This document shows positions 9,308-60,339 of a stretch of 64,000 nucleotides of DNA, piece after piece. The notes under the pieces are model-generated. The model searched no databases. It had not been told where the DNA came from and saw only the letters and a program-made list of their open reading frames with translations. The translations under genes and the position numbers were made by a program. Where the stretch lies: positions 5,715 through 69,714 of the forward strand of contig JBAYHY010000001.1 of NCBI GenBank assembly GCA_041665885.1. Direction: 5' to 3'. The stretch comes from Minisyncoccota bacterium (GTDB taxonomy: Bacteria; Patescibacteriota; Minisyncoccia; Phycocordibacterales; UBA9973). Every line of letters starts with the position of its first letter. Position 1 is the first letter of the stretch.

Positions 9308-10384
9308 ATGCAAAACATCGTTTGGATAATAATTGGAATAGTCGTTGGAGCTGTCGTCGTCTATATAATTTTGAATAAGAAGAAAAAGACAGACAATAGT
9401 GACAACCCATTTTCGTTGCTTCAACAGCAGATATCGGAACTTACTCGTCAGCTTGATTCAAAACTTACTGAATCACGTAGAGACATGCAAGATGCGGTAC
9501 GTACCCAGTTTTCTGAATCACAAAAACTCTTAAAAGATATTAATGAGCAAATGAGTAAAAATCTGATTGATGTCGCACGGGAACAAACAAAAACGAACGA
9601 AGCAACTAGAGAATTTGTAACCATTGCAGAAAAACTTAGCAATCTTGAAAAGACTCTCAAACACCAAAAACAGCGAGGCAACTGGGGCGAAGCATCGCTT
9701 GAGCTTATTCTTTCAAATACCTTGGCCCCAGGACAATATAAAATGCAATATGAATTTAAGAACAAAGAAACCGTGGATGCAGTGATAATTACTAAGGAAG
9801 GAATAATTCCGATAGATGCGAAGTTTTCTTTAGACAATTACGATAGGGTTGTGCATGCTATCGACGACCGACAACGTGAAGAGCTTGAAAAAGAATTTAA
9901 AAATGATTTAAAAAAACGGATTGATGAAACTGCAAAATATGTTCGACCGGAAGAAAATACACTCCCTTTTGCTTTTATGTATATCCCCGCTGAAGCAATT
10001 TATTATGATCTGCTTGTCAACGAAGTTGGTTCAATAAAAGTTAACACAAGAAATCTAATTGATTATGCTTACAACGAAAAAAAGGTCATTATCATTTCCC
10101 CCACTACTTTTATGGCATATTTACAGTCGGTTCTATACGGTTTCAAGGCATTTAAAATTGAAGAATCTGCAAAAGAAATAATTAAAAAAGTGAATGATTT
10201 AGGTAAACACTTAGGTGCATATTCTGAATACCACGTTAAATTAGGTAATGCGATTAATACTGTTGCAAATCATTATGATAAATCAAATAAGGAATTAAAA
10301 AAAATAGATAAAGATGTGCTCAAAATCGCCGGCACCTCGCCAGAACTTTCTCTTCTTGAGATAGATAAACCAAAACTAGAATAA
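9308..10384 (+). CDS. rmuC: DNA recombination protein RmuC
   Basis: 358 aa with an N-terminal TM, a coiled coil, and the RmuC C-terminal domain (FAFMYIPAEAIYYDLL). Confidence 0.85.
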   Translation: MQNIVWIIIGIVVGAVVVYIILNKKKKTDNSDNPFSLLQQQISELTRQLDSKLTESRRDMQDAVRTQFSESQKLLKDINEQMSKNLIDVAREQTKTNEATREFVTIAEKLSNLEKTLKHQKQRGNWGEASLELILSNTLAPGQYKMQYEFKNKETVDAVIITKEGIIPIDAKFSLDNYDRVVHAIDDRQREELEKEFKNDLKKRIDETAKYVRPEENTLPFAFMYIPAEAIYYDLLVNEVGSIKVNTRNLIDYAYNEKKVIIISPTTFMAYLQSVLYGFKAFKIEESAKEIIKKVNDLGKHLGAYSEYHVKLGNAINTVANHYDKSNKELKKIDKDVLKIAGTSPELSLLEIDKPKLE

Positions 10385-11673: not shown

Positions 11674-13201
11674 ACGCAAAACCAGGGAAGAAATCGGTTT
11701 TAATATTTTTTCTTGATACTCCGATAGATTTCAAGGTATTTTCAAACGCGTCAACCATCCCCCTCGGACCGGAAATATAAAAAGTTTTATTTAAATAATT
11801 TGGAATTTCTTTCTCTATCATCCTCGCATCGATTGAACCTTTTTGCATTGATTCTTCAAATACCGCCTCCCCCTTGCCGGTAATGACATAAACTGTTTTT
11901 ATCCCTAGTTCGGCTCGCGCCCTATCGAAAACCTCCTTATAAGCAATATCCTTGGTCGTTTTATTCGAGTAAAGCAAAGTGATAGTCCTTTTTTGTTTTT
12001 TATCTAGCAAATATTTTATCATGCTACGAAATGGCGTGATACCGATACCCCCGGCAATAAACACCAAATCTTTTTCCGAGTCTTCCGGTAAAACAAAATC
12101 ACCGGATTTTTGGGCTGCGATTATTCCCCCGCCCTCCGGCATGGCAAGCAGGTGATTCTTGAAACTGCTCGGCTCCGGATAGAATTTTACTCCGAGGTGT
12201 ATTTCATCTTCTGTCGGAGATGAAGCCAGAGTAAAATATCGTCTATTCCCTCTCGTATCCGGGCTACGATGTTTGAGGGTCCACTCCATATATTGTCCGG
12301 GGCGGAAATTAAAATTTTTGTCTTTTTCAAAAATAAAATCGTAAGTGTCCACGCCGACCTTGATGCGGTCCTTCAATTTCAAAAATAATTTTTCCTTGGG
12401 GCTCACGATGTAAGCGAAAATATTTCCGATTACTAGGGCAAGCTCTGGCGTTGAATAAAATATTCCAAAATGTAGCGCTGGCGCAAATAAGAAACCGACT
12501 AGTGCACCGAAGGCGATCCGAAGCCATTTCGTGGTCGGAGCCGTCAAGGGCTCTGTGAGCATTACAAAAGCAAAGAAAAAGAACGCGGAATCCGTCATGG
12601 TCCTCATGAGAGTGGTCATGATATCCGAGCCCCTAAACATTGCCAAAACGGAAATAGTAGTGAAAGCAGAAATCAGAAAAGCAAAAAACAAGTCTGCCCG
12701 ACGAATTTTTCTGATTATCAAAAACCCACCGATCAGGACAAAAGGCAACATGTTCGGCGTCCCTATCCACCAACTAGCGGATTGATTAATCGTCAGGGCC
12801 GTGAGTGCCACCGCGAAAGCGGCGGGATTAAAAATATGTTTACCCTTGATGGCCAGAATATATTTAGACGCCATAGCCCAAACTGAAGCCCAAAAAGCAA
12901 ATGGCAAAAATTGCGAATATATCCCACTCTGAATCGGGGTAATGAGAAAAAACAAAATTAGCGCAGTTATATAAATAGATTCTGTGTTGGTAGGCGCGTC
13001 ATAAAAGAAAGAAAAAATAATATTTGTTATCCAGGATATCAACAAAATAATAAGCAGAGAGGAAATAAGATCCGTCGGACTATAGGGCAAAAAACCAAAC
13101 AATGAAAGAACCAGGGACGCACCGAAAAAAAAGATGAGGACGTATAGAACCACCCGGTACATGGTCGTTTTATTTAAAAAATTATCTACAAAATTAAGCA
13201 T
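11672..13201 (-). CDS. Membrane-bound oxidoreductase: N-terminal NqrB/RnfD-like polytopic domain fused to C-terminal ferredoxin-NADP+ reductase-like FAD/NAD(P)-binding domain
   Basis: 509 aa. The N-terminal ~300 aa are hydrophobic (HIFNPAAFAVAL, MLTEPLTAP). The C-terminus carries the RYFTLASSP (RxY[ST] FAD) motif and the GGIGITP NAD-binding motif. Confidence 0.7.
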   Translation of the reverse strand: MLNFVDNFLNKTTMYRVVLYVLIFFFGASLVLSLFGFLPYSPTDLISSLLIILLISWITNIIFSFFYDAPTNTESIYITALILFFLITPIQSGIYSQFLPFAFWASVWAMASKYILAIKGKHIFNPAAFAVALTALTINQSASWWIGTPNMLPFVLIGGFLIIRKIRRADLFFAFLISAFTTISVLAMFRGSDIMTTLMRTMTDSAFFFFAFVMLTEPLTAPTTKWLRIAFGALVGFLFAPALHFGIFYSTPELALVIGNIFAYIVSPKEKLFLKLKDRIKVGVDTYDFIFEKDKNFNFRPGQYMEWTLKHRSPDTRGNRRYFTLASSPTEDEIHLGVKFYPEPSSFKNHLLAMPEGGGIIAAQKSGDFVLPEDSEKDLVFIAGGIGITPFRSMIKYLLDKKQKRTITLLYSNKTTKDIAYKEVFDRARAELGIKTVYVITGKGEAVFEESMQKGSIDARMIEKEIPNYLNKTFYISGPRGMVDAFENTLKSIGVSRKNIKTDFFPGFA

Positions 13202-16390: not shown

Positions 16391-16462
16391 TGACCCTACC
16401 GGGAATCGAACCCGAATTTTATCCTTGAGAAGGATACGTCCTAACCGTTAGACGATAGGGCC
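16391..16462 (-). tRNA. tRNA-Glu (anticodon CUC)
   Basis: The reverse complement folds as a cloverleaf: GGCCCUA acceptor, anticodon loop UUCUCAA, T-loop UUCGAUU. Confidence 0.85.
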
Positions 16463-16565
16463 AACGAGAAGAATATAACATTTTTTAAAGAAAATTAAAA
16501 ATATTAATATTCTAATAAACACCCAAATATTATCGGACGGCCAACGTCTGTGGCCACAAATCTTG

Positions 16566-33933: not shown

Positions 33934-34860
33934 ATGACATACGATTTAATTATTATCGGTGGTGGACCGGCTGGTAGCGCAGCCTCTGTTTATGCTGCCC
34001 GCAAAAGATTAAAAACACTATTTATTACCTCGGAATGGGGAGGACAAAGTGTCGTCTCGGAACAGATTTATAACTGGATTGGCTCCCCTTCCATCTCTGG
34101 TAATGATTTGGCCTCAAATTTTAAAAAGCATGTATTAGCTAATGTGGGCGAGAGCTTGGAGGTAAAAGAAGGCCAAAGAGTAAATACCATTGCGAAGTCG
34201 GGTGAAGAATTTTCTGTAAAAACGGATACCGGAGAAGAATTTTTAACTAAAACAATTTTGATTGCTACCGGTAGCGGGCGCAGAAAACTCGAAGCAAAAA
34301 ACGCGGATAAATTTGAGAACAAAGGACTCACCTATTGCGCCACCTGCGATGGCCCTCTTTTTGCAGACATGGACGTAGCTGTCATCGGTGGAGGCAATGC
34401 CGCTTTCGAAAGCGCCGCCCAACTCCTGGCTTACTGTAAATCTGTCACCCTTATAAATAGAACAGATACTTTTCGTGCGGATGCGATAACAGTTGAAAAA
34501 GTTTTAAAAAATCCCAAAATGTCGGCATTAAAAAATATAGACATTTTAGAGATAAAAGGCGACAAATTTGTAGAAGGAATTATTTATAAAGATAAGGCTA
34601 CCAGCGCTGAAAAAGAGCTCAAGGTTTCTGGTATATTTGTAGAAATCGGACAAATTCCAAACACTGCTTTCGTTAAAGACATATTACCTCTTGATAAAAT
34701 AGGCAGAATTAAGATCGACGCTTGGAACCAAAAAACAGAAGTTCCGGGTATCTGGGCAGCCGGAGATTGCACCAATGTCTTGTATCATCAGAACAACATT
34801 GCCGCCGGCGATGCTGTTCGCGCACTCGAGGACATCTACCTGGCAATCCATACGAAATAG
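33934..34860 (+). CDS. trxB: Thioredoxin-disulfide reductase
   Basis: FAD (DLIIIGGGPAGSAA) and NAD (AVIGGGNAAFE) motifs and the redox-active CATCDG are present. The start was set at MTYDL; the track start at 33919 includes a TATAAT box. Confidence 0.85.
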   Translation: MTYDLIIIGGGPAGSAASVYAARKRLKTLFITSEWGGQSVVSEQIYNWIGSPSISGNDLASNFKKHVLANVGESLEVKEGQRVNTIAKSGEEFSVKTDTGEEFLTKTILIATGSGRRKLEAKNADKFENKGLTYCATCDGPLFADMDVAVIGGGNAAFESAAQLLAYCKSVTLINRTDTFRADAITVEKVLKNPKMSALKNIDILEIKGDKFVEGIIYKDKATSAEKELKVSGIFVEIGQIPNTAFVKDILPLDKIGRIKIDAWNQKTEVPGIWAAGDCTNVLYHQNNIAAGDAVRALEDIYLAIHTK

Positions 34861-34964
34861 TTTATAAACCTATCGTATTTGACTTAATTAGCATATGCGT
34901 GTTAAGGTTTTTTAAATCACAAGTAGTTCTGTTCGACCTGACCCAACAAACGAAGGAGGGGTAA

Positions 34965-35204
34965 ATGATAACGGAAATGCGTTGGCAAAAGTTAGTGCCT
35001 GGGGAGAAAATCCTTGATGTTTCGTTAGAAATTTGGGTGGTCATCCGAGGAGTCACTCACCGCGAGCCCGCGACCATCGTCGCGCGTTCTCCTCACAATG
35101 GAGAAGAAATCCGCCTAACCTGGAGCGAAGATTGGATCTATTATGGATTGGATCCAGTCAGGGTCCTGGAGACCAATTGCATCGCGGTCGTCCAGGTGAG
35201 ATGA
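34965..35204 (+). CDS. Hypothetical small protein (GC-elevated, self-contained expression unit)
   Basis: 79 aa with a strong SD (GAAGGAGGGG-N4-ATG) and a terminator immediately downstream. It abuts the 3' end of tRNA-Ser. Confidence 0.5.
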   Translation: MITEMRWQKLVPGEKILDVSLEIWVVIRGVTHREPATIVARSPHNGEEIRLTWSEDWIYYGLDPVRVLETNCIAVVQVR

Positions 35205-35225
35205 AAAGAAATTCGCATCGGAGCT

Positions 35226-35257
35226 AGGCCCCCTGGGGCCTGGCTCTTTTATTTTTT
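35226..35257 (+). terminator. Intrinsic terminator AGGCCCC-ct-GGGGCCT + T-tract
   Basis: Seen directly. Confidence 0.7.
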
Positions 35258-35269
35258 ATATCCAAAAAG

Positions 35270-35351
35270 CGGAGGGTACAGGGCTCGAACCTGTAAGGGC
35301 TTTCGCCCGCTGGTTTTCGAAACCAGTGCATTACCATTCTGCCAACCCTCC
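35270..35351 (-). tRNA. tRNA-Ser (anticodon CGA), class II with long variable arm
   Basis: The reverse complement reads GGAGGGU...CUGGU-UUCGAAA-ACCAG, with variable arm GGGCGAAAGCCC, T-arm ACAGG-UUCGAGC-CCUGU and discriminator G. Confidence 0.8.
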
Positions 35352-35376
35352 ATGTTCTCATGTTAAAACATATTAA

Positions 35377-36552
35377 TTATTTCTGCAAAATTTTGGGCTG
35401 TAAGAAAATAAAAGTTCCCATTGCGATGAGTGCAATGAAGGCCGCGAAAATAAAAGCGTAAATAGGATTGAAAATCCACAAGAGACCGGCAATAGCTGAA
35501 GCAGGGAGATAAACGAGGCCGGTGACAAAATTATACATGCCGATGGCCGTCGCCCGCCTGTCTTGCTCAATATCAGAAATATAGGCTTTGCTTTGCGCCT
35601 CGTCGATAGCGTAGAAAAAACCAAACAAGACAAACAAAACAATTATTTCCCACCTGGCCTTCACAAAAATAAAGCCCAAAGACATTACTATATAAATTAA
35701 ATATTCCAAAACAATAATATACTTTCTACCTATCCAGTCCCCGAGTTTGCCGATCGGCACCGAAAATGCCACAAAGGAAATATTAAAGAGAGCATAAAGC
35801 AACACCACATCTTTTATGGAGAAGCCCACGTCATAAGCCCGAAGCAATAGAAAACTAAAACTAAAATATGCCAAGGAAAAAATCCCAGCCGGAATAAGAA
35901 AAAGCTTGAAGCCTTTACTCAAGGCCCCCCAAGCCTTAAATATATTCTCCCTTTCATGTGGAGTGCCCGGCCGATCCTTCATTAAACAAAGAACCGCCAC
36001 CGCTGCTACGGCGCCAACAACGGCGATAATAAAAATTATACGAAAAGTACCCACGCTCTGACCCAAATACAAAAGAATGAAATAGGCAATAAGTGGTCCG
36101 ACGACAGCTCCTGCTTTATCCATGGCCTTATGGAGACCAAAGGTGTATCCCCTGTTGGATTCTTCCGCCACGGCAGAAAGCCAGGCGTCTCTCGGAGGCC
36201 CTCGAAAGCTTTTTCCCAAACGCTCTATCACCCTAAATAAGGCAAGAGCAAAAACAGAACTCCCTAGAAGCAACATTGTTTTTGCTACCGTCGAAAAACC
36301 GTAACCGGTCATGGCCAATGGTTTTCTTTTTCCTGATTTATCAGACAACCAACCCGCAAAATAATCCAAGGAAGAAGCGGAAAAGTCCGCCATACCCTCA
36401 ATCAAACCAAGGAGCGAAGCGGAGGCGCCTACTATCACCGTAAAAAAAATCGAAAAAACAGAAAAGACAGATTCCGAACTTATGTCCGTCAAAAAACTGA
36501 CAAGGCCTAATTTCAAAACGTCCGGATCAACATTCAAAAATCTTTTTTTCAT
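35377..36552 (-). CDS. MFS transporter
   Basis: 391 aa with 12 predicted TM segments and MFS loop motifs (GWLSDKSGKRKP). Confidence 0.8.
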   Translation of the reverse strand: MKKRFLNVDPDVLKLGLVSFLTDISSESVFSVFSIFFTVIVGASASLLGLIEGMADFSASSLDYFAGWLSDKSGKRKPLAMTGYGFSTVAKTMLLLGSSVFALALFRVIERLGKSFRGPPRDAWLSAVAEESNRGYTFGLHKAMDKAGAVVGPLIAYFILLYLGQSVGTFRIIFIIAVVGAVAAVAVLCLMKDRPGTPHERENIFKAWGALSKGFKLFLIPAGIFSLAYFSFSFLLLRAYDVGFSIKDVVLLYALFNISFVAFSVPIGKLGDWIGRKYIIVLEYLIYIVMSLGFIFVKARWEIIVLFVLFGFFYAIDEAQSKAYISDIEQDRRATAIGMYNFVTGLVYLPASAIAGLLWIFNPIYAFIFAAFIALIAMGTFIFLQPKILQK

Positions 36553-36719
36553 CTTTTAATTATAACAAGAAATAATGAGTGCGGATAGATTTATATATTT
36601 ATAAATTTTTTGTCTCCTTGACGTTAACTTCCGATGTGTGCATAATATACATACTAAGTTCTTTCCAACGAGGTTCTGCGGATCTAAGGGTCCTTAAAAC
36701 AGGAAAAAAGGAGGAGACG

Positions 36720-37088
36720 ATGCTGCTAACGTCAGAGGTTCTTAGAACATTCAAGGAAGGTACCATGGTGATGGAAAACAAGAAGAACGAGTACTTCGCT
36801 CGAGGCAAGGTGATGAACCTCACAGTCACCGGCAATAAACTCGAGATAACCTTCCTTCTTTTTGCCTTCGGGTGGACCACGGGGAGGATTGACTTCCCCA
36901 CAATGCCACAAGAATGGGTCCTGGCCGTCGACAAGCGCTTTCTTTCGTGGGTGGTGGACCTAAACAACTACACGTCCAAGGACACCGACCCTCTGTCGGG
37001 GGATATTTCCTTCGACGAAGAAGGAAATTTCACGATGGTCTCCCTAGACCACAATCAAAAAATCTTGTTTCGCCCACTAGCCAAGTAG
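36720..37088 (+). CDS. Hypothetical small protein (GC-elevated, own promoter/SD/terminator)
   Basis: 122 aa from the ATG preceded by AAGGAGG-N6. The promoter TTGACG-17-CATAAT lies at 36626-36654 and a terminator follows. The track ORF starts at 36579. Confidence 0.45.
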   Translation: MLLTSEVLRTFKEGTMVMENKKNEYFARGKVMNLTVTGNKLEITFLLFAFGWTTGRIDFPTMPQEWVLAVDKRFLSWVVDLNNYTSKDTDPLSGDISFDEEGNFTMVSLDHNQKILFRPLAK

Positions 37089-37117
37089 AGCTATCGGGCC
37101 AAACAAAAATGACAAAA

Positions 37118-37148
37118 CCCCCGCCAACCCAGGCGGGGGATATTTTTT
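37118..37148 (+). terminator. Intrinsic terminator CCCCCGCC-aaccca-GGCGGGGG + T7
   Basis: Seen directly. Confidence 0.7.
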
Positions 37149-37388
37149 GGGACCCTACCGGACTTCTTTCCCTACGGGAACAGTATACCTTTTCAAATAG
37201 TTAATTTTGTATGCTTCGCATTCTGAATTTATGTGGTCACAAGTTACTAAATAAAATTTTTCGATATCCTCAAATTTTATGTAAGTACTTGCCGACCCCA
37301 GCTCGGCTATTCGCGTACTCGCGAATTATGCCTGTGCCTTCACAAACGGCTCGCAAATAAAGCAGTTTATTTGGCTTTGCGCCGTTTG

Positions 37389-37460
37389 TGACCCTACCGG
37401 GAATCGAACCCGAATTACCGGCTTGAAAAGCCGATGTCCTAACCGTTAGACGATAGGGCC
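37389..37460 (-). tRNA. tRNA-Glu (anticodon UUC)
   Basis: Identical to the tRNA-Glu(CUC) at 16391-16462 except in the anticodon arm. The anticodon loop is UUUUCAA. Confidence 0.85.
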
Positions 37461-37494
37461 AATTTCACACACACAAATATCTTACTCCTCTATT

Positions 37495-37556
37495 CTATTC
37501 AGCTTTTCAAAAAGCCGATGTCCACTATGTTCTAACTTGGTTAGACGATAGGGCCA
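37495..37556 (-). repeat. tRNA-Glu 5'-half pseudo-copy directly upstream (same strand) of tRNA-Glu(UUC)
   Basis: The minus strand reads GGCCCUAUCGUCUAAC..ACAUCGGCUUUUUGAAAAGC, with the first 16 nt identical to the tRNA 5' end. The upstream flank AATATAACATTTTT is also shared with the tRNA-Glu(CUC) locus. Confidence 0.6.
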
Positions 37557-37615
37557 ATACAAAAAATATAACATTTTTAAACTTAAATGCAAAACTTAAA
37601 AAAATATAAAATCTA

Positions 37616-38389
37616 GTGTATAATCATGAGCACATGAACAAAAAAGATACAATAAAAATAATCATCCTGGCAGCAGGCAAGGGTACGAGGATGAAAAGCG
37701 AATTACCAAAAGCTCTAGTAAGAGTCAAAGGCAAGGCAATGATTAGACACCTACTTGATTCTATTGATAAATCCAAAATAAATAGTAAGCCGGTGATCGT
37801 TGTTGGTTTCGAAAAAGAAAAAATAATGGCCGAGCTCGGTCCGAATTATGATTATGCTGTGCAAAAAGAGCTACTGGGAACGGGGCACGCTGTCCAAAGC
37901 GCAGAAGAATTACTCCGGGACAATTCAGCTCATGTGCTCGTCTTGTATAGCGATAGTCCATTTGTAAGCCCGGAAACCATTGATCGTTTGATGGATAAAC
38001 ACCTCGCATCAAATAAAAAAATAACAATGGCCACAATCAAACTTGAGAATTTTGACGACTGGAGAGCCTTTTTTTACAAAAGTTTCTCTCGGATTATCAG
38101 AAACGAAAATAACGAAATCGTGCGCGATGTCCAATTCCGAGACACCAATATGGAAGAAAAGACGATTACGGAAGTTAACCCATGCTACTTTATCTTTGAG
38201 TCCGGATGGCTTTGGAAAAAATTAAAAACCCTAAAAACAGACAACGACCAAAATCAATATTACCTTACCGATTTAATCAAAATAGCCATGGAAGAAGGAG
38301 AAAAAATAGAATCCGTAAACATTGATCCCTTGGAAGGTCTTTCCGTGAACTCAAAAGAAGAGCTTGAACTACTGGAAAAATTAAAATAG
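37616..38389 (+). CDS. Sugar-phosphate nucleotidyltransferase (GlmU N-terminal domain-like)
   Basis: The IIILAAGKGTRMKSELPKAL motif is present. The likely true start is MNKKD at 37634. Confidence 0.7.
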   Translation: MYNHEHMNKKDTIKIIILAAGKGTRMKSELPKALVRVKGKAMIRHLLDSIDKSKINSKPVIVVGFEKEKIMAELGPNYDYAVQKELLGTGHAVQSAEELLRDNSAHVLVLYSDSPFVSPETIDRLMDKHLASNKKITMATIKLENFDDWRAFFYKSFSRIIRNENNEIVRDVQFRDTNMEEKTITEVNPCYFIFESGWLWKKLKTLKTDNDQNQYYLTDLIKIAMEEGEKIESVNIDPLEGLSVNSKEELELLEKLK

Positions 38390-38993: not shown

Positions 38994-40214
38994 ATGCAAA
39001 ATCCTTTTCAAAATGCAATGGCGCAGTTAGACAAGGTCGCAAAGATTAAAGACTTTGGCAATGAATATATCTCCCGTTTTAGGCAACCAAATCGTGACAT
39101 TAGAATATCTATCCCAGTAAAAATGGACGATGGTTCGTTGAAGATATTCGAGGGATATCGAGTGGAATACAATGATGCCCTGGGCCCCTACAAAGGAGGA
39201 ATCCGCTATCATCACGACACCGAAATAAATGAGGTGAAGGCACTCGCTTTCTGGATGACAATAAAATGCGCCGTCGCAGGAATCCCTATGGGTGGAGGCA
39301 AGGGAGGAATCACCGTCGACCCAAAAGAATTATCTAAAGGTGAACTGGAGAGGCTTTCTCGCGGCTGGGTGCAAGGACTTTCTGATATATTGGGCCCCCA
39401 CAAAGACGTTCCTGCTCCGGATGTAAACACCACCCCAGAGATAATGGCTTGGATGTCTGACGAATTTGAAAAAATTACCGGAGACAAGACTAGAGCAACC
39501 TTCACGGGCAAGCCAATAGAAAATGGCGGTTCGGAGGGACGTGGCGCAGCTACGGGGCTCGGAGGATTTTATGTTTTTGATTCATTGCGTGAACAAATCG
39601 GGCTACCGGTAAAATGTAAGGTCGCGATTCAGGGTTTTGGAAATGTCGGCAGCAATGCCGCCCGCATCTTTACGGAAAACGGGCATACTGTTATCGCTGT
39701 TTCTGATTCAAAGAGCGCAATCGTGAAAGAAGATGGGCTTAATTTAGAAGAAGTTGAGGCACACAAAAAAACTACCGGTAGTTTGAAAGACTTTCCGGGA
39801 GCAAAAAATATTACAAACGCTGAGTTGCTTGAGCTCTCCTGCGACCTCTTGGTACCGGCTGCATTTGAAAACGTAATAACTAGTGAAAATGCCGATAAAA
39901 TCAAGGCTACGGCGATTATGGAGCTCGCCAATGGCCCGATAAACCCTGAGGCAGACGAGGTTTTGTTCAAGAAAAACATCGCCGTCATCCCAGACGTTTT
40001 AGCTAATTCGGGCGGAGTCACTGTTTCCTATTTCGAGTGGGATCAAAATCTTAAAAATGAATCCTGGACGGAAAAAGAAGTAAACGAAAAACTATTGCCA
40101 ATGATGGACGCCGCTGCCCAAAAAATATTCGACAAGGCAAAAGAAAACAATACACATTTGCGTATGGGTGCTTTCATCCTAGCCCTTGAAAGAATTAAGG
40201 AAAAAATGCTATAA
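38994..40214 (+). CDS. gdhA: Glutamate dehydrogenase (Glu/Leu/Phe/Val dehydrogenase family)
   Basis: The catalytic region PMGGGKGG and the NAD(P) motif GFGNVG are present. Confidence 0.9.
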   Translation: MQNPFQNAMAQLDKVAKIKDFGNEYISRFRQPNRDIRISIPVKMDDGSLKIFEGYRVEYNDALGPYKGGIRYHHDTEINEVKALAFWMTIKCAVAGIPMGGGKGGITVDPKELSKGELERLSRGWVQGLSDILGPHKDVPAPDVNTTPEIMAWMSDEFEKITGDKTRATFTGKPIENGGSEGRGAATGLGGFYVFDSLREQIGLPVKCKVAIQGFGNVGSNAARIFTENGHTVIAVSDSKSAIVKEDGLNLEEVEAHKKTTGSLKDFPGAKNITNAELLELSCDLLVPAAFENVITSENADKIKATAIMELANGPINPEADEVLFKKNIAVIPDVLANSGGVTVSYFEWDQNLKNESWTEKEVNEKLLPMMDAAAQKIFDKAKENNTHLRMGAFILALERIKEKML

Positions 40215-40224
40215 ATATATAGCG

Positions 40225-40366
40225 GCGCGGTTAGCTCAGTTGTAGCGACGCCTGAAATACGCTGTAATTTTCATTTTATGATAAGATGAAAATTTGCGCG
40301 GTTAGCTCAATTGTAGCGACGCCTGAAATACGCTGTAATTTTCATTTTATGATAAGATGAAAATTT
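40225..40366 (+). repeat. Two tandem 71-nt repeats, each a degraded copy of the tRNA-Val 5' half plus a 9-bp-stem hairpin (AATTTTCAT...ATGAAAATT)
   Basis: Each unit (40225-40295 and 40296-40366) starts with gcgcggttagctca(g/a)ttg, which is identical to the tRNA-Val 5' end. Confidence 0.7.
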
Positions 40367-40439
40367 GCGCGGTTAGCTCAGTTGGTAGAGCGACCCCTTG
40401 ACGTGGGGTAGGCCACAGGTTCGAATCCTGTATCGCGCA
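40367..40439 (+). tRNA. tRNA-Val (anticodon GAC)
   Basis: The acceptor stem is GCGCGGU, the anticodon loop UUGACGU, and the T-loop UUCGAAU. The 3' trailer is ACCCA. Confidence 0.85.
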
Positions 40440-45352: not shown

Positions 45353-45425
45353 GGATATAATTTAACATATTTTCTAAAAAATACCAATTCCAAATAAGCT
45401 TTTTATGTGTTAGATTATAGACATA

Positions 45426-46634: not shown

Positions 46635-46715
46635 AATACTTTTATGATTACTTTTTAATATCTTCATTATAGCATGCTTGTCAAGCAGACAAATAAGCGA
46701 TATATTTCATTATAT

Positions 46716-46781
46716 GCGGTCGTAGTTTAGTGGTAGAATGAGTATTTCTAAGTCTGTGAAGGTAGTTTGAAAACAGTGCTT
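46716..46781 (+). repeat. tRNA-Gly 5'-half pseudo-copy directly upstream of tRNA-Gly(CCC)
   Basis: The stretch gcggtcgtagtttagtggtagaatgagt matches the tRNA-Gly 5' end gcgggattagtttagtggcagaatgagt at 24 of 28 positions. No complementary 3' acceptor strand follows. Confidence 0.6.
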
Positions 46782-46852
46782 GCGGGATTAGTTTAGTGGC
46801 AGAATGAGTCCTTCCCAAGGATTAGGCGGGGTTTCGATTACCCCATCCCGCA
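46782..46852 (+). tRNA. tRNA-Gly (anticodon CCC)
   Basis: The sequence reads GCGGGAU...AGUCC-UUCCCAA-GGAUU...GGGGU-UUCGAUU-ACCCC-AUCCCGC-A. Confidence 0.8.
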
Positions 46853-57090: not shown

Positions 57091-60000
57091 CTAGGGCGCT
57101 GGTTCCGTCGGGGGTTCCGGGGCTGGGTCAGCAGGGGCTGGGTCAGCGCAAACATTATTTACAAGTACCTGTGGAGCAACACATGTCGGGACGACTGGCG
57201 CGGGATCAGTGCAGGCGCCATCTACCAGGATTTGTGGAGCGGTGCAAACAGGCACTTCGGGAGCTGGGTCTACACATACATTGTCCACCAGGACTTGTGG
57301 AGCAACACAAGCAGGGGTGATAGGGACAACGCTTCCACCACCAGCACCCACCATCGCCTCAAGGGTGTCACCATTTGCGCAGAATTCCGTACCATCCGCT
57401 TTTGCCACACAAAGCTCTTTCGTATGAACACGATTGGCAAAGAAGTCCCCTATCCCATTCGTAGCATCTGCGAGCCAGGTACCCATGTTGGCAAAGAAAG
57501 CTGTCACGAAAGATTCGGAAGTGGAACCGGGTTCAGGGATAACTGTTCCGGCAATTCCTTCCAAGTTCAAATTGAGTTCCTTCACGGCATTAACGGTCGT
57601 GGCTAAAATAGCGTTTGTATCTAGGCCATAAGGATTCCCCAAGGAGTCATGGGTGGCCAATTCCGGAGCGACGGAATTTACTTCTTCAGAAATAAATCCG
57701 AAATGAATCGCATCGCCCATATTCATGTCCGGTTTGAATGTATACGAAACAGGACGAAGAGCCATCAGATTCGCCAAGCTGTCGGACAAATCATCGATGC
57801 TGTCCTTGAAACGTTCCGATGAAGGAGTACAAATAATGTTCCCGGAAACATCCACCGAGATAGTCCCGGCCGTGGTGCATCCCGCTTGTTGGATTACTCC
57901 CGCATTCGTCACACTAAACTTACTTACCCCTCCTACCTGTGCATCAATTAAATTCCCGCTTGTCTTTGCGGTAGGGTTGATTAAAAAATCTGTGAGAGCG
58001 GAAGAATCTGCTTTTACTAAATGCAATTGTGCTGTCGGTGCTGTTATCCCGATACCGACACTGCCGTTGTTTAGAATCGTCATCGCTGTCGTTCCAGCAC
58101 TTTCTCCCACCTTTAAAATAAGGTTTGCATTGGTCAAAGTATTTCCGGTAGTATTGTTGCCCTGTAAGGTCAGGGTGCCGTTCGCCACCGTTGAACCATT
58201 GACCAATGGGTCAGTAATTGACGTCGTAAAGGTCGGAGAATTTAGACGGACAAAATTCCCAGTCCCCGTGCCCGTGTATTCCGCCGAAGTGAGGTGGTAA
58301 TATTGATCCGCACTCCCTCCCTGCAACCCTACGAGTTGATTATGACGAACAACCATCGGAGTGTGAAAGTGAGTATAATTGGCTGTTCCATTATGTACTA
58401 GGCTAACTGTCGTATTCGATGTCCTTGTTGTTCGTCCATAAAATTTAACCACCAACCTGTCTGTAGGATTAATAGCAAAGGCCGGCTGCACGGTTGTGAC
58501 TGAAGCCAAAAATACTGAGGTAGAATTAATATCTGGAGTCTCTGTCGTAAACAAAAGCGTTTCCACTCCTCCCGAGTCTCTCTTGTAAACCTCTGCCCTG
58601 ATGACTGATATTTGGACTGTGCTACTTAAATATCCATAGATGTCAAATTGCCACACTCCAGCCTCTATGGAAGTACTTCCCAACCCGAGAGGTGAAGAAG
58701 CATATGATTCAATCAACGCTGTGCTGTTGTTCACAACAACAGAATCGACAATTTGAGGAAGACTAGTCGGGGCGGGGGTCAGGGTAACGTACGACGGAAT
58801 ATCGGAGGCAGTATCGTCTAAATAAAAACTGACTCCGGCGCCACCACTTACCGTATCTGGATTTACATTCACCCAGGTACTGCCATTATATGCCAAGACC
58901 TGGTTTGCGGTGGGTGTCAGTGCCCCAACGTCGGAAAGGTTCGCTAGTCCTATTTGTGTGCCATCAATTCTAAACAAGGACCCTGACGATAAATTCAAAT
59001 CCCCCGCTACGTCTAATTTATACCCGGGTACAATTGTTCCAATCCCGACTCTATGATTTACTGAATCCACAAAAAGAGAATTAGTGTCCACCGTTAAACT
59101 ATGAGCTCCTAAATCTACATTTGAAGTTCCCCCAGTAAAAGGAACATACGAGGAGAGACTACCCGTCGTTGCGAATGCACTCGCATGATTGCCATCCAAC
59201 ATATCTGCATTAAGATTAGAAACAAGGGTAGTCGAGGCGATAGACAATGGAGCCGTACCTGTCGCTATTGCAGACTTCAAAGTATTCCCGCGCACTTCAC
59301 CAGTATCTCCATCGAGCCAGGCTGAAGAAGTAGAGCCATTGTTTGTCTCAATATGACTCGGAGTGATGAGAGAGAGATGCCCTGTCCCATCTGTATAATT
59401 CATACCGCCAAGAAAGCCCCCCAACATGAACGAAAGGTTTTGATTTTGTGTAGGATCAGATGAATCGTTGTAAGAAAGACTAATATTGTTCGTGGCTACT
59501 GTCGTAGCTTGTGTAACCGTACCAATCGTCTGTAAAAAAGTTAAATTATTCTGAGCAAGAGAAGTGTAGTCGGTACTTGGAGTTCCGAAAAATACATTGC
59601 CGGGCTTGATTGACCCGCTGGTTGTTAAATCATTTACTCCCAAATCCACATCCCCCGTCGCCCCGGTGTAAGGCACCAGGCCAGACAAATCAGGAATACT
59701 GCCAACTGGTCCCCAGGCTGTACCATTAAAATATTTGTAAGTATTGGTAGTGGTGTCGTAAGAGAGATCTCCGGCCACTCCTGTAGGCAGTGAAGCAGTA
59801 GGAAAACCTGTGCTGTTGAAATATTTTGCCGTTAGTTTGTTTCCACCCAAAGCGACATCCCCCGTCGCCCCAGTGTAATGTAAAACATCATCAGATAAAT
59901 CATGTATCGTGTCATTGATTGAATCATATATTGCAGCCACTTGATTATCAAAGAAAGATTTAGAAACAAAAGAAGATGTGTTGATGCTCCCTCCCCCCGA

Positions 60001-60339
60001 TGAACCTTGAGGGCCTGCTGGACCTACGGGACCCTGCGCGCCAGTCGGGCCGACTGGACCACGGGGACCTGTTGGACCTGAAATTCCTTGAGAACCCTGC
60101 GCGCCAGGAGCAGCAACTTGAATCACCGGAGATGGGACATTTGTTTTTATGGGCGCTATACTTGAGGGAACGACCACTTCAAACACAAATGGAGAAATGA
60201 GATTTTTATATGCATCGACTAAATATGTAAAAGGATTGAAAGCTAGGGCTGGAGTGGCAAAAGAAAAAGTGGCCGATAGAAAGAATATCGAGATTAAAAA
60301 CTTTTTTATAAATAATATAAAACTTTTCTTTTTTAACAT
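57091..60339 (-). CDS. Large secreted fibre protein: signal peptide, collagen-like GXY repeats, long beta-rich Gly/Thr/Ser/Asn stalk, C-terminal intramolecular-chaperone (peptidase S74-like) domain and Cys-containing C-terminal repeats
   Basis: 1082 aa. The N-terminus is MLKKKSFILFIKKFLISIFFLSATFSFATPALA. A GXY run follows (GAQGSQGISGPTGPRGPVGPTGAQGPVGPAGPQG). Near the C-terminus, SSERFKDSIDDL...LRPVSYTFK...HFGFISEEV matches the tail-fibre/endosialidase chaperone signature. Three C(V/T)APQ(V/I)LVD..C.DPAP repeats follow. Confidence 0.65.
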   Translation of the reverse strand: MLKKKSFILFIKKFLISIFFLSATFSFATPALAFNPFTYLVDAYKNLISPFVFEVVVPSSIAPIKTNVPSPVIQVAAPGAQGSQGISGPTGPRGPVGPTGAQGPVGPAGPQGSSGGGSINTSSFVSKSFFDNQVAAIYDSINDTIHDLSDDVLHYTGATGDVALGGNKLTAKYFNSTGFPTASLPTGVAGDLSYDTTTNTYKYFNGTAWGPVGSIPDLSGLVPYTGATGDVDLGVNDLTTSGSIKPGNVFFGTPSTDYTSLAQNNLTFLQTIGTVTQATTVATNNISLSYNDSSDPTQNQNLSFMLGGFLGGMNYTDGTGHLSLITPSHIETNNGSTSSAWLDGDTGEVRGNTLKSAIATGTAPLSIASTTLVSNLNADMLDGNHASAFATTGSLSSYVPFTGGTSNVDLGAHSLTVDTNSLFVDSVNHRVGIGTIVPGYKLDVAGDLNLSSGSLFRIDGTQIGLANLSDVGALTPTANQVLAYNGSTWVNVNPDTVSGGAGVSFYLDDTASDIPSYVTLTPAPTSLPQIVDSVVVNNSTALIESYASSPLGLGSTSIEAGVWQFDIYGYLSSTVQISVIRAEVYKRDSGGVETLLFTTETPDINSTSVFLASVTTVQPAFAINPTDRLVVKFYGRTTRTSNTTVSLVHNGTANYTHFHTPMVVRHNQLVGLQGGSADQYYHLTSAEYTGTGTGNFVRLNSPTFTTSITDPLVNGSTVANGTLTLQGNNTTGNTLTNANLILKVGESAGTTAMTILNNGSVGIGITAPTAQLHLVKADSSALTDFLINPTAKTSGNLIDAQVGGVSKFSVTNAGVIQQAGCTTAGTISVDVSGNIICTPSSERFKDSIDDLSDSLANLMALRPVSYTFKPDMNMGDAIHFGFISEEVNSVAPELATHDSLGNPYGLDTNAILATTVNAVKELNLNLEGIAGTVIPEPGSTSESFVTAFFANMGTWLADATNGIGDFFANRVHTKELCVAKADGTEFCANGDTLEAMVGAGGGSVVPITPACVAPQVLVDNVCVDPAPEVPVCTAPQILVDGACTDPAPVVPTCVAPQVLVNNVCADPAPADPAPEPPTEPAP

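Follow-up and report, generated by a model that had tools for sequence, protein, structure and literature searches.

Partial copies on both sides of a tRNA-Glu(UUC) gene in a Minisyncoccota genome: footprints of rearrangement, with duplication at a single-copy tRNA gene as the favoured origin

Do partial copies of a tRNA gene mark the edges of an integrated element? This question is raised by the tRNA-Glu(UUC) locus in a 64,000-nucleotide (nt) stretch of a Minisyncoccota genome (contig JBAYHY010000001.1, positions 5,715 to 69,714; hereafter the window), where the intact gene is preceded by a partial copy of its 5' half and followed at a distance by a copy of its 3' end. An earlier note on this DNA had taken the two copies as the scar of an integrase-mediated insertion. 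Partial tRNA copies are routinely taken as island footprints; taken that way here, a housekeeping tRNA unit and two small genes that are vertically inherited would wrongly pass for mobile DNA. The present analysis did not support an integrase or a cargo gene, but it did support the looser idea of a rearrangement scar. On balance, the sequence upstream of tRNA-Glu is probably a decayed copy left at a single-copy tRNA gene by a tandem duplication, of which it would be the upstream member, or by an insertion that entailed duplication; it would have been retained for its promoter and is now folded into hairpins.

The locus was compared with about 10 genomes, which were retrieved via exact matches of neighbouring proteins and labelled L001, L015, L016, L017, L019, L021, L022, L023, L024, L025 and L026. 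Scans of genomes and metagenomes with the neighbouring GlmU-like protein returned distant loci only. The closest relative of the window was L024, with 79% nucleotide identity across 8.5 kb. Between the window and L016, only 35% of 564 4-fold degenerate sites were identical, indicating saturation; unconstrained DNA is therefore expected to be unalignable between these two genomes. Each tRNA was screened against its own flanks by k-mer and blastn-short searches, and the frequency of chance matches was estimated from 2000 dinucleotide shuffles of the flank. In the blastn-short screen, tRNA fragments were confined to the 5' copies described below and to one 3' repeat. Three Rfam searches over the window or the locus returned nothing except tRNAs.

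The features at the locus are consistent with a single compact minus-strand unit (Table 1), in which the promoter P1 would be followed by the 95-nt leader, tRNA-Glu(UUC), the 227-nt structured trailer and a bidirectional terminator. Leader, tRNA and trailer are predicted to be co-transcribed from P1. The pseudo-copy starts at 37555, 95 nt ahead of the 5' end of the real tRNA-Glu. Positions 1-16 of the gene (GGCCCTATCGTCTAAC) are repeated exactly at 37540-37555, as the earlier note had stated, and positions 22-35 (GGACATCGGCTTTT) are also repeated exactly, at 37510-37523. Matches of at least 14 nt were found in none of the 2000 shuffles of the 400-nt upstream flank. The two identical blocks are followed by a stem traceable to about position 43, and no similarity was recognisable beyond it; in an nhmmer search, leader positions 1-51 matched the real tRNA-Glu. 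Behind positions 1-16 lies an 11-nt insertion predicted to fold back and pair with positions 5-16. The anticodon stem has been remodelled, and the rest of the leader is AT-rich with a (TG)n run.

Table 1. Position of the tRNA-Glu(UUC) unit, related tRNA copies and small genes in the window
Feature	Position	Strand	Basis and remarks
Promoter P1 of the tRNA-Glu(UUC) unit	37565-37593	-	TTTGCA, 17-nt spacer, TG-extended TATATT; consensus scan
95-nt leader, decayed copy of the tRNA-Glu 5' part	37461-37555	-	exact matches, nhmmer, fold
Functional tRNA-Glu(UUC)	37389-37460	-	ARAGORN; Rfam RF00005, 62.2 bits; CCA not encoded
Conserved structured trailer	37162-37388	-	homology in L016, L019 and L021; consensus fold
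11-nt copy of tRNA-Glu positions 61-71 (CCGGTAGGGTC)	37151-37161	-	3' end of module D, just ahead of the terminator
Bidirectional intrinsic terminator	37118-37139	both	8 G-C pairs; ends the tRNA-Glu unit (-) and the small open reading frame (+)
122-amino-acid (aa) open reading frame (ORF), 49.6% GC (guanine plus cytosine)	36720-37088	+	lineage-specific; outside the repeat-bounded segment
79-aa ORF, 51% GC	34965-35204	+	between trxB and the tRNA-Ser 3' end; same place in L024
Two tandem 71-nt units	40225-40366	+	each opens with tRNA-Val(GAC) positions 1-18, decayed to about 29
66-nt decayed tRNA-Gly(CCC) copy	46716-46781	+	behind promoter TTGTCA-17-TATATT (46678-46706), before the real tRNA-Gly (46782-46852)

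The -10 box of P1 ends 9 nt ahead of the pseudo-copy start. The upstream flank that had been noticed at both tRNA-Glu loci is AATATAACATTTTT, the reverse complement of the TG-extended -10 box TGTTATATT; in the window it occurs only at 37565 and at 16472, the latter beside tRNA-Glu(CUC). The real tRNA-Glu(CUC) at 16462 has the identical -10 box in front of it, again with a spacing of 9 nt, and the real tRNA-Arg likewise begins 9 nt after its -10 box. An exact 9-nt gap between the -10 box, often TG-extended, and the start of a tRNA or pseudo-copy was seen at 16463-16480, 37556-37573, 40206-40224, 45408-45425 and 46698-46715. With this gap, primary transcripts would carry leaders of 1-3 nt only. 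The consensus scan predicted no second two-hexamer promoter in the spacers, leaving P1 as the only recognisable promoter. The -10-like boxes TAAGATATT, TAGGATATT and TGATAAGAT were picked out by eye in the spacers, yet they form part of no predicted two-hexamer promoter and were rejected as a second start.

The pseudo-copy occupies the original site of the gene behind the promoter, as the gene itself does in relatives without a copy. A 19-nt 5' copy precedes tRNA-Glu in L016, with 69 extra nt between the pseudo-copy position and the real gene, and the real tRNA-Glu of L021, L019 and L017 aligns with this L016 pseudo-copy directly after the common conserved promoter. In the predicted fold of the window leader, a hairpin at 37519-37556 sequesters the pseudo 5' strand by pairing CUAUCGUCUAAC with GUUAGAACAUAG, and a second hairpin lies at 37499-37518. 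The predicted fold of the L016 leader pairs GCCCCAUC... with ...GGUUGGGGC (z = -3.9). The pseudo 5' strand is locally paired in both predicted folds, with different partners, and a U/A-rich hairpin follows in each.

The same pattern was found at other tRNA genes. The comparison of tRNA genes with their flanks that the earlier note had proposed gave repeats at further loci: partial copies are present at Glu, Val and Gly in the window and at Glu, Gly, Ser, Val and Arg in relatives. Every 5' copy found is in direct orientation between the promoter and the intact gene. The real tRNA-Val (40367-40439) lies immediately 3' of its tandem units, for which Tandem Repeats Finder (TRF) gave a period of 71, 2.3 copies and 97% matches; such units were absent from L015, L016, L017 and L019. 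Each unit ends in a 13-bp AU-rich hairpin.

The leaders of tRNA-Gly are orthologous in four genomes (window 46716-46781; L025 8056-8121; L016 15114-15179; L026 about 12496-12571). Those of the window, L025 and L016 are all 66 nt long. In L025, 28 of 28 nt are identical to the gene, in L016 the copy comprises 20 nt, and in L026 the leader is strongly decayed. Weak resemblance to tRNA-Gly extends to about position 55 (E about 0.05). The window and L016 leaders are about 76% identical without indels, and this identity extends to stretches that are no longer tRNA-like.

A filled and an empty site could be compared at tRNA-Ser. In L024 (8656-8794, minus strand), the conserved promoter and the gene are separated by a 125-nt insertion, which a 12-nt repeat taken from the tRNA-Ser 5' end delimits; the window is uninterrupted at this place (35341-35351). 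The copy comprises 12 nt only and is followed by unrelated DNA; the insertion showed no significant similarity to any leader or trailer. It opens with a 12-bp CUGC-loop hairpin and a U-run, like the tRNA-Arg terminator of L016 and other tRNA terminators of the clade. In L022, positions 1-18 of tRNA-Val are split by a 35-nt palindrome and followed by a gene for a 78-aa GIY-YIG protein and then by the intact tRNA-Val. This region (12030-12412, the same in L023) comes after the gdh stop codon, where the window has its tandem units; its tRNA-Val fragment is of the window-type sequence, and the intact tRNA-Val is divergent. The arrangement looks like a nuclease-gene cassette inserted in a tRNA gene together with a replacement copy. 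The protein had no homologue in the window. Leaders were absent altogether from L017, L019 and L022. Partial duplications or insertions of this kind recur at single-copy tRNA genes in this Paceibacterota clade.

The spacing of the copies approximates one gene length, with periods of 95 nt (Glu, including the 11-nt and (TG)n insertions), 71 nt (Val), 66 nt (Gly) and 69 nt (L016 Glu) compared with 72-73 nt for the tRNAs. These periods favour duplication, and the weak similarity of the Gly leader to the gene up to about position 55 would fit it as well. In the case of tRNA-Glu, the local duplication would have involved either a tandem copy of the whole gene, with later loss of the 3' part, or an insertion in which only the 5' part was duplicated. 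The promoter-proximal copy would then have decayed without being lost, because it carries P1, the only recognisable promoter, and the downstream copy would have stayed intact as the source of the tRNA. The 5' end of the decayed copy would have stayed identical to the tRNA and been neutralised by a compensating hairpin: tied up locally, the pseudo 5' strand would not compete with the real 5' strand for the tRNA 3' strand, which may be the reason for the compensating insertion. The retained identity of 16-28 nt could come from gene conversion or from a constraint on the promoter-proximal, initially transcribed region. At single-copy essential tRNA genes, only rearrangements that leave one intact copy are viable, which accounts for the stereotyped partial copy beside an intact gene.

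Several observations weigh against this explanation. The Glu leaders of the window and L016 have no detectable homology beyond the tRNA-like bases and may be independent events; long-term conservation thus applies to the Gly leader and the Glu trailer, not to the Glu pseudo-copy. Chief among these observations is the contrast between 16 and 14 perfectly retained nucleotides and an unrecognisable 3' part, which uniform decay does not predict; simple duplication would have to be supplemented by gene conversion, by selection or by an insertion mechanism. The spacer contains no clear copy of the promoter region, which excludes a simple recent duplication of the promoter and 5' half. The unit lengths would fit such a recent tandem duplication through microhomology between the anticodon loop and the promoter, but it was rejected: it cannot be both recent and neutral, since the divergence of the spacer from the promoter far exceeds that of the tRNA-like part from the tRNA. 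The hairpins of the Gly leader are no more stable than those of shuffled sequences (z about 0), so that sequestration is weak there. Finally, as described below, a piece of trailer behind a tRNA-Arg gene could be a mobile mini-element instead of a local duplication.

The downstream copy belongs to the trailer. GACCCTACCGG has three occurrences in the window, one in each tRNA-Glu gene and one at 37151-37161. This distal 11-mer was correctly recognised in the earlier note, but it lies 227 nt beyond the discriminator base of tRNA-Glu and not 215 nt. A match of at least 11 nt was obtained in 13 of 2000 shuffles of the downstream flank (0.0065), corresponding to about 0.04 once all 14 tRNA flanks of the window are taken into account; the match is nominally significant but not overwhelming. 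The stretch bracketed by the two 11-mers is 216 nt long, non-coding and without an ORF.

Homologues of the trailer were found behind tRNA-Glu in L016 (E = 4e-22), L019 (1e-5) and L021 (1e-3). The homologous segments are window 37148-37388 (minus strand), L016 7687-7960, L019 9773-9960 and L021 1082-1262. The L021 match spans module D (37148-37200), the 11-mer included, and L016 and L019 align more weakly there. The consensus fold of the trailer from three genomes has 32 pairs, 14 of them with compensatory changes. Its first helix is invariant and is formed by the last bases of tRNA-Glu, UCAC, and AAA, which pair with UUUGUGA; it encloses a terminator-like CUGC-loop hairpin (37353-37374), a type of hairpin that stands behind several tRNAs of the clade. 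A second, covarying hairpin domain comes next (about 37290-37335), and beyond it are the long stem at about 37222-37300, one small hairpin and finally module D. The G-U pairs of the region speak for the tRNA strand (-37.1 versus -29.6 kcal/mol). No Rfam 15 family was assigned to the trailer, as searches over 37100-37392 and 34800-37800 gave chance-level hits only (E of at least 0.4). A multi-copy repeat was considered and rejected, the trailer being single-copy in the window and at each locus.

The motif resembling the tRNA 3' end has the form CCGGTAGGGTCCC in the window and CCCGATAGGATCAC in L021, and L016 and L019 both have TTGTGGACCAC; it loosely tracks the tRNA of its own genome. The most plausible view of the 11-mer is that it ends an old conserved trailer module and does not mark the far edge of an island. 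It probably derives from an earlier duplication of the tRNA 3' end and terminator. In L026 (12880-13095, minus strand), a 106-nt element stands behind tRNA-Arg(CCT); the 3' end of this tRNA is repeated perfectly over 18 nt at the element's boundary, and there is an additional 10-nt partial repeat. About 40 nt of this element are common to the L021 tRNA-Glu trailer and 18 nt to the window trailer. A trailer piece behind another tRNA, together with the 18-nt repeat, points to possible duplicative or mobile behaviour of trailers. Trailers might, in a related view, be tiny non-autonomous elements whose insertion at tRNA ends duplicates 11-24 nt of the target.

Selection for a tRNA-mimicking leader and trailer is an unlikely alternative, in which the elements might act as a stabilising 5' hairpin, as a decoy or attenuator through which a tRNA-binding factor is sensed, or as a 5'-3' processing stem as in rRNA precursors. 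The conservation of the Gly leader and the Glu trailer despite saturated neutral sites would fit this explanation, as would the similar hairpin architecture that arises from different sequences in the Glu leaders of two genomes and the terminator-like hairpins after several pseudo-copies. Moreover, when the whole 454-nt transcript was folded at minimum free energy, the pseudo 5' end and the 11-mer paired over 10 bp, and the energy of this duplex (-23.6 kcal/mol) was matched by 0.7% of shuffles. However, the duplex of leader and trailer was not significant in L016 (P = 0.11), and the processing helix between leader and 11-mer, strong in the window, was rejected as a conserved feature. L021 has module D without a pseudo-copy. 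The decay of the L026 Gly leader and the lack of leaders in L017, L019 and L022 indicate that the elements are dispensable, and the stability of the Gly leader hairpins, no better than that of shuffles, also counts against selection for a mimic. The broader form of the idea appears quite unlikely: the single-copy tRNA genes of the clade would repeatedly gain and long retain copies of their 5' ends, and in the case of Glu also a trailer with a 3'-end mimic, and these would now be functional tRNA-mimicking RNAs (autoregulatory decoys or attenuators, or precursor-processing stems) forming an undescribed class of bacterial tRNA cis-elements.

An integrase-mediated scar is very unlikely. It would require that an element entered the 3' end of tRNA-Glu, regenerated it and displaced the original 11 bases, which would now be attR, with the small gene as cargo or remnant. 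The 11-mer is the extreme 3' end of the tRNA, the usual place of an att core, and its local probability is about 0.007; tRNA fragments left by integrated elements are a recognised class that has been reviewed (PMC9897764). The direct repeat expected of an integrated element is present, at 37151-37161 and 37390-37400, but a recombinase inside it, an empty site and cargo between the repeats were all missing. Pfam scans of the approximately 50 window ORFs of at least 90 aa detected housekeeping domains only and no integrase, recombinase, resolvase or transposase, so the search for an integrase that the earlier note had proposed came out negative. The serine recombinase of L022 gave only an antisense tRNA match in the window by tblastn. 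An empty-site allele would have tRNA-Glu followed directly by CCAAAAAATAT and the terminator. Instead, the trailer is present and homologous in L016, L019 and L021, and L017, which lacks it, yet has no exact empty site. The bracketed 216 nt are non-coding, conserved and covarying despite saturated neutral sites. The gene at 36720-37088 lies beyond the distal 11-mer and not between the repeats, and its L024 homologue adjoins tRNA-Ser without tRNA-Glu or the 11-mer. Att integration also leaves the 5' pseudo-copy unexplained, because it duplicates one end of a tRNA only.

Real insertions do occur at these genes in relatives. They comprise a recombinase and PemK in L022, a 19-nt repeat of the tRNA-Ser 3' end in L021 and the tRNA-Arg element of L026. 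The L022 island (4030-8215) lies between tRNA-Ser and tRNA-Glu and contains an unknown 380-aa gene, the PemK toxin and a 533-aa large serine recombinase, whose 3' end overlaps tRNA-Glu antisense; an inverted 132-nt copy of its 3' coding region is found at 6478-6609. In some relatives the tRNA-Glu unit is inverted. The inversion, the L022 island and the L021 repeat indicate that the Ser/Glu junction is unstable in relatives. What remains of the earlier integration-scar reading is the footprint of a rearrangement at an insertion hot spot; its integrase and small-gene cargo are not supported.

The GC content of the two small genes is elevated compared with the 40.3% of the window, as had been noted. 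The 122-aa ORF does have a promoter-like site upstream, at 36618-36646, and a terminator, which is the bidirectional one shared with the tRNA-Glu unit, and the 79-aa ORF does adjoin the tRNA-Ser 3' end. No Pfam family was found for either. The 122-aa ORF had a single homologue (70% identity, in L024) among 5.8 billion proteins, with identities of 0.81, 0.84 and 0.47 at the three codon positions; the 79-aa ORF and its L024 counterpart share 86% aa identity, with 0.89, 0.95 and 0.68. These patterns indicate purifying selection on both ORFs. The gene order in L024 is trxB, 79-aa ORF, tRNA-Ser, 122-aa ORF homologue, terminator and macB, with neither tRNA-Glu nor the 11-mer nearby; the small ORFs (8264-8503 and 9001-9363) flank tRNA-Ser as in the window. 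This arrangement and the purifying selection indicate that the small ORFs are vertically inherited neighbours of tRNA-Ser in the lineage of the window and L024, not cargo of the tRNA-Glu repeat. Putative tRNA-Ser 3' remnants flanking the 79-aa ORF were rejected as chance resemblance of the type of a ribosome-binding site.

That the pseudo-copy is a remnant of a group I intron, with the 5' fragment as an old 5' exon ending at U35 and the rest later replaced by an intron-less copy, is extremely improbable and was rejected: exact identity does end at U35, and group I introns at 35/36, preceded by U, are enriched in Patescibacteria tRNAs (PMC13011429), but all other intron features are missing, with no RF00028 match at the locus (E up to 10) or in the window (gathering score), a spacer of only about 40 nt compared with about 200 nt or more for group I introns, no separate 3' exon, a remodelled anticodon stem kept to about position 43, other pseudo-copies that end at positions 12, 18, 20 and 28 instead of 35, and reported introns that lie in Asn, Asp, Met, Phe, Tyr and Thr tRNAs and not in those for Glu, Gly or Val (PMC13011429).

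The genes around the locus are, in order, ftsZ, trxB, the 79-aa ORF, tRNA-Ser(CGA) (minus strand), a major facilitator superfamily (MFS) transporter (minus strand), the 122-aa ORF (plus strand), tRNA-Glu(UUC) (minus strand), the GlmU-like gene, arsR, grx, gdh, tRNA-Val, tsaD and valS. Two very different alleles of tRNA-Ser(CGA) were found (window 35270-35351; L024 8568-8655), type 1 in the window, L001, L017 and L019 and type 2 in L024, L016 and L021. This distribution is at odds with genome relatedness and suggests replacement of the tRNA gene by transfer between lineages. At 57091-60339 (minus strand), the otherwise housekeeping region encodes a 1082-aa protein of tail-fibre-like architecture, with a Peptidase_S74 domain (endosialidase/tail-fibre intramolecular chaperone) and a weak collagen-repeat match. 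In L021 (12802-14245), an RVT_1 reverse transcriptase in two ORFs lies beside a bAvd-like gene just downstream of tRNA-Val, which is probably a diversity-generating retroelement.

Genome-reduced Patescibacteria have one essential gene copy for each tRNA, and rearrangements at these genes leave 5' fragments on the promoter side. Such fragments can persist, keep part of their identity with the gene and form leader hairpins, and at least one tRNA bears a trailer RNA that is conserved and covaries. Any influence of these elements on the expression or processing of tRNAs would amount to a simple control at the RNA level in organisms that possess few regulators. Neutral elements, in turn, would be useful for marking recombination and gene conversion at the tRNA genes of uncultivated lineages. 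Two findings merit clade-wide attention, namely the recurrent and partly conserved 5' pseudo-copy leaders and the unannotated covarying trailer RNA of tRNA-Glu.

Among known systems, the Patescibacteria group I introns at 35/36 share with this locus the phylum and the break of identity at U35, but they differ in the intron-sized ribozyme and 3' exon, in the tRNA species concerned and in the RF00028 match, all lacking or different here (PMC13011429). A limited literature search found no description of conserved promoter-side 5' tRNA fragments as leaders, which is weak evidence. The locus resembles integrated elements in the short direct repeat of the extreme tRNA 3' end downstream of an intact gene and in the insertion hot spot in relatives. 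Integrative elements reportedly leave attL/attR repeats of a tRNA 3' segment, an observation said to go back to Reiter 1989 and Williams 2002. Unlike these, the window locus has no integrase, the bounded 216 nt are structured and non-coding, the small gene lies outside, and there is an extra 5' copy upstream.

In Escherichia coli, the tyrT locus carries 178-bp repeats downstream of tRNA-Tyr, each with the last ~19 nt of the tRNA. There, as probably here, copies of the tRNA 3' end arose in a co-transcribed trailer by local duplication and without a mobile element; the window locus differs in that a single 3' copy ends a non-repetitive structured trailer and is accompanied by a mirror-image 5' copy in the leader. 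Tandem tRNA gene duplications in which one member has become a pseudogene are also known, for example as partial copies in organelle genomes. They share with the copies described here the same orientation, the position adjoining the intact gene, the period of about one gene and the decay of one copy. In contrast to them, the decayed copy is here always promoter-proximal, its first 16-28 nt are perfectly identical to the tRNA, and the copy at tRNA-Gly has persisted across genomes whose neutral sites are saturated.

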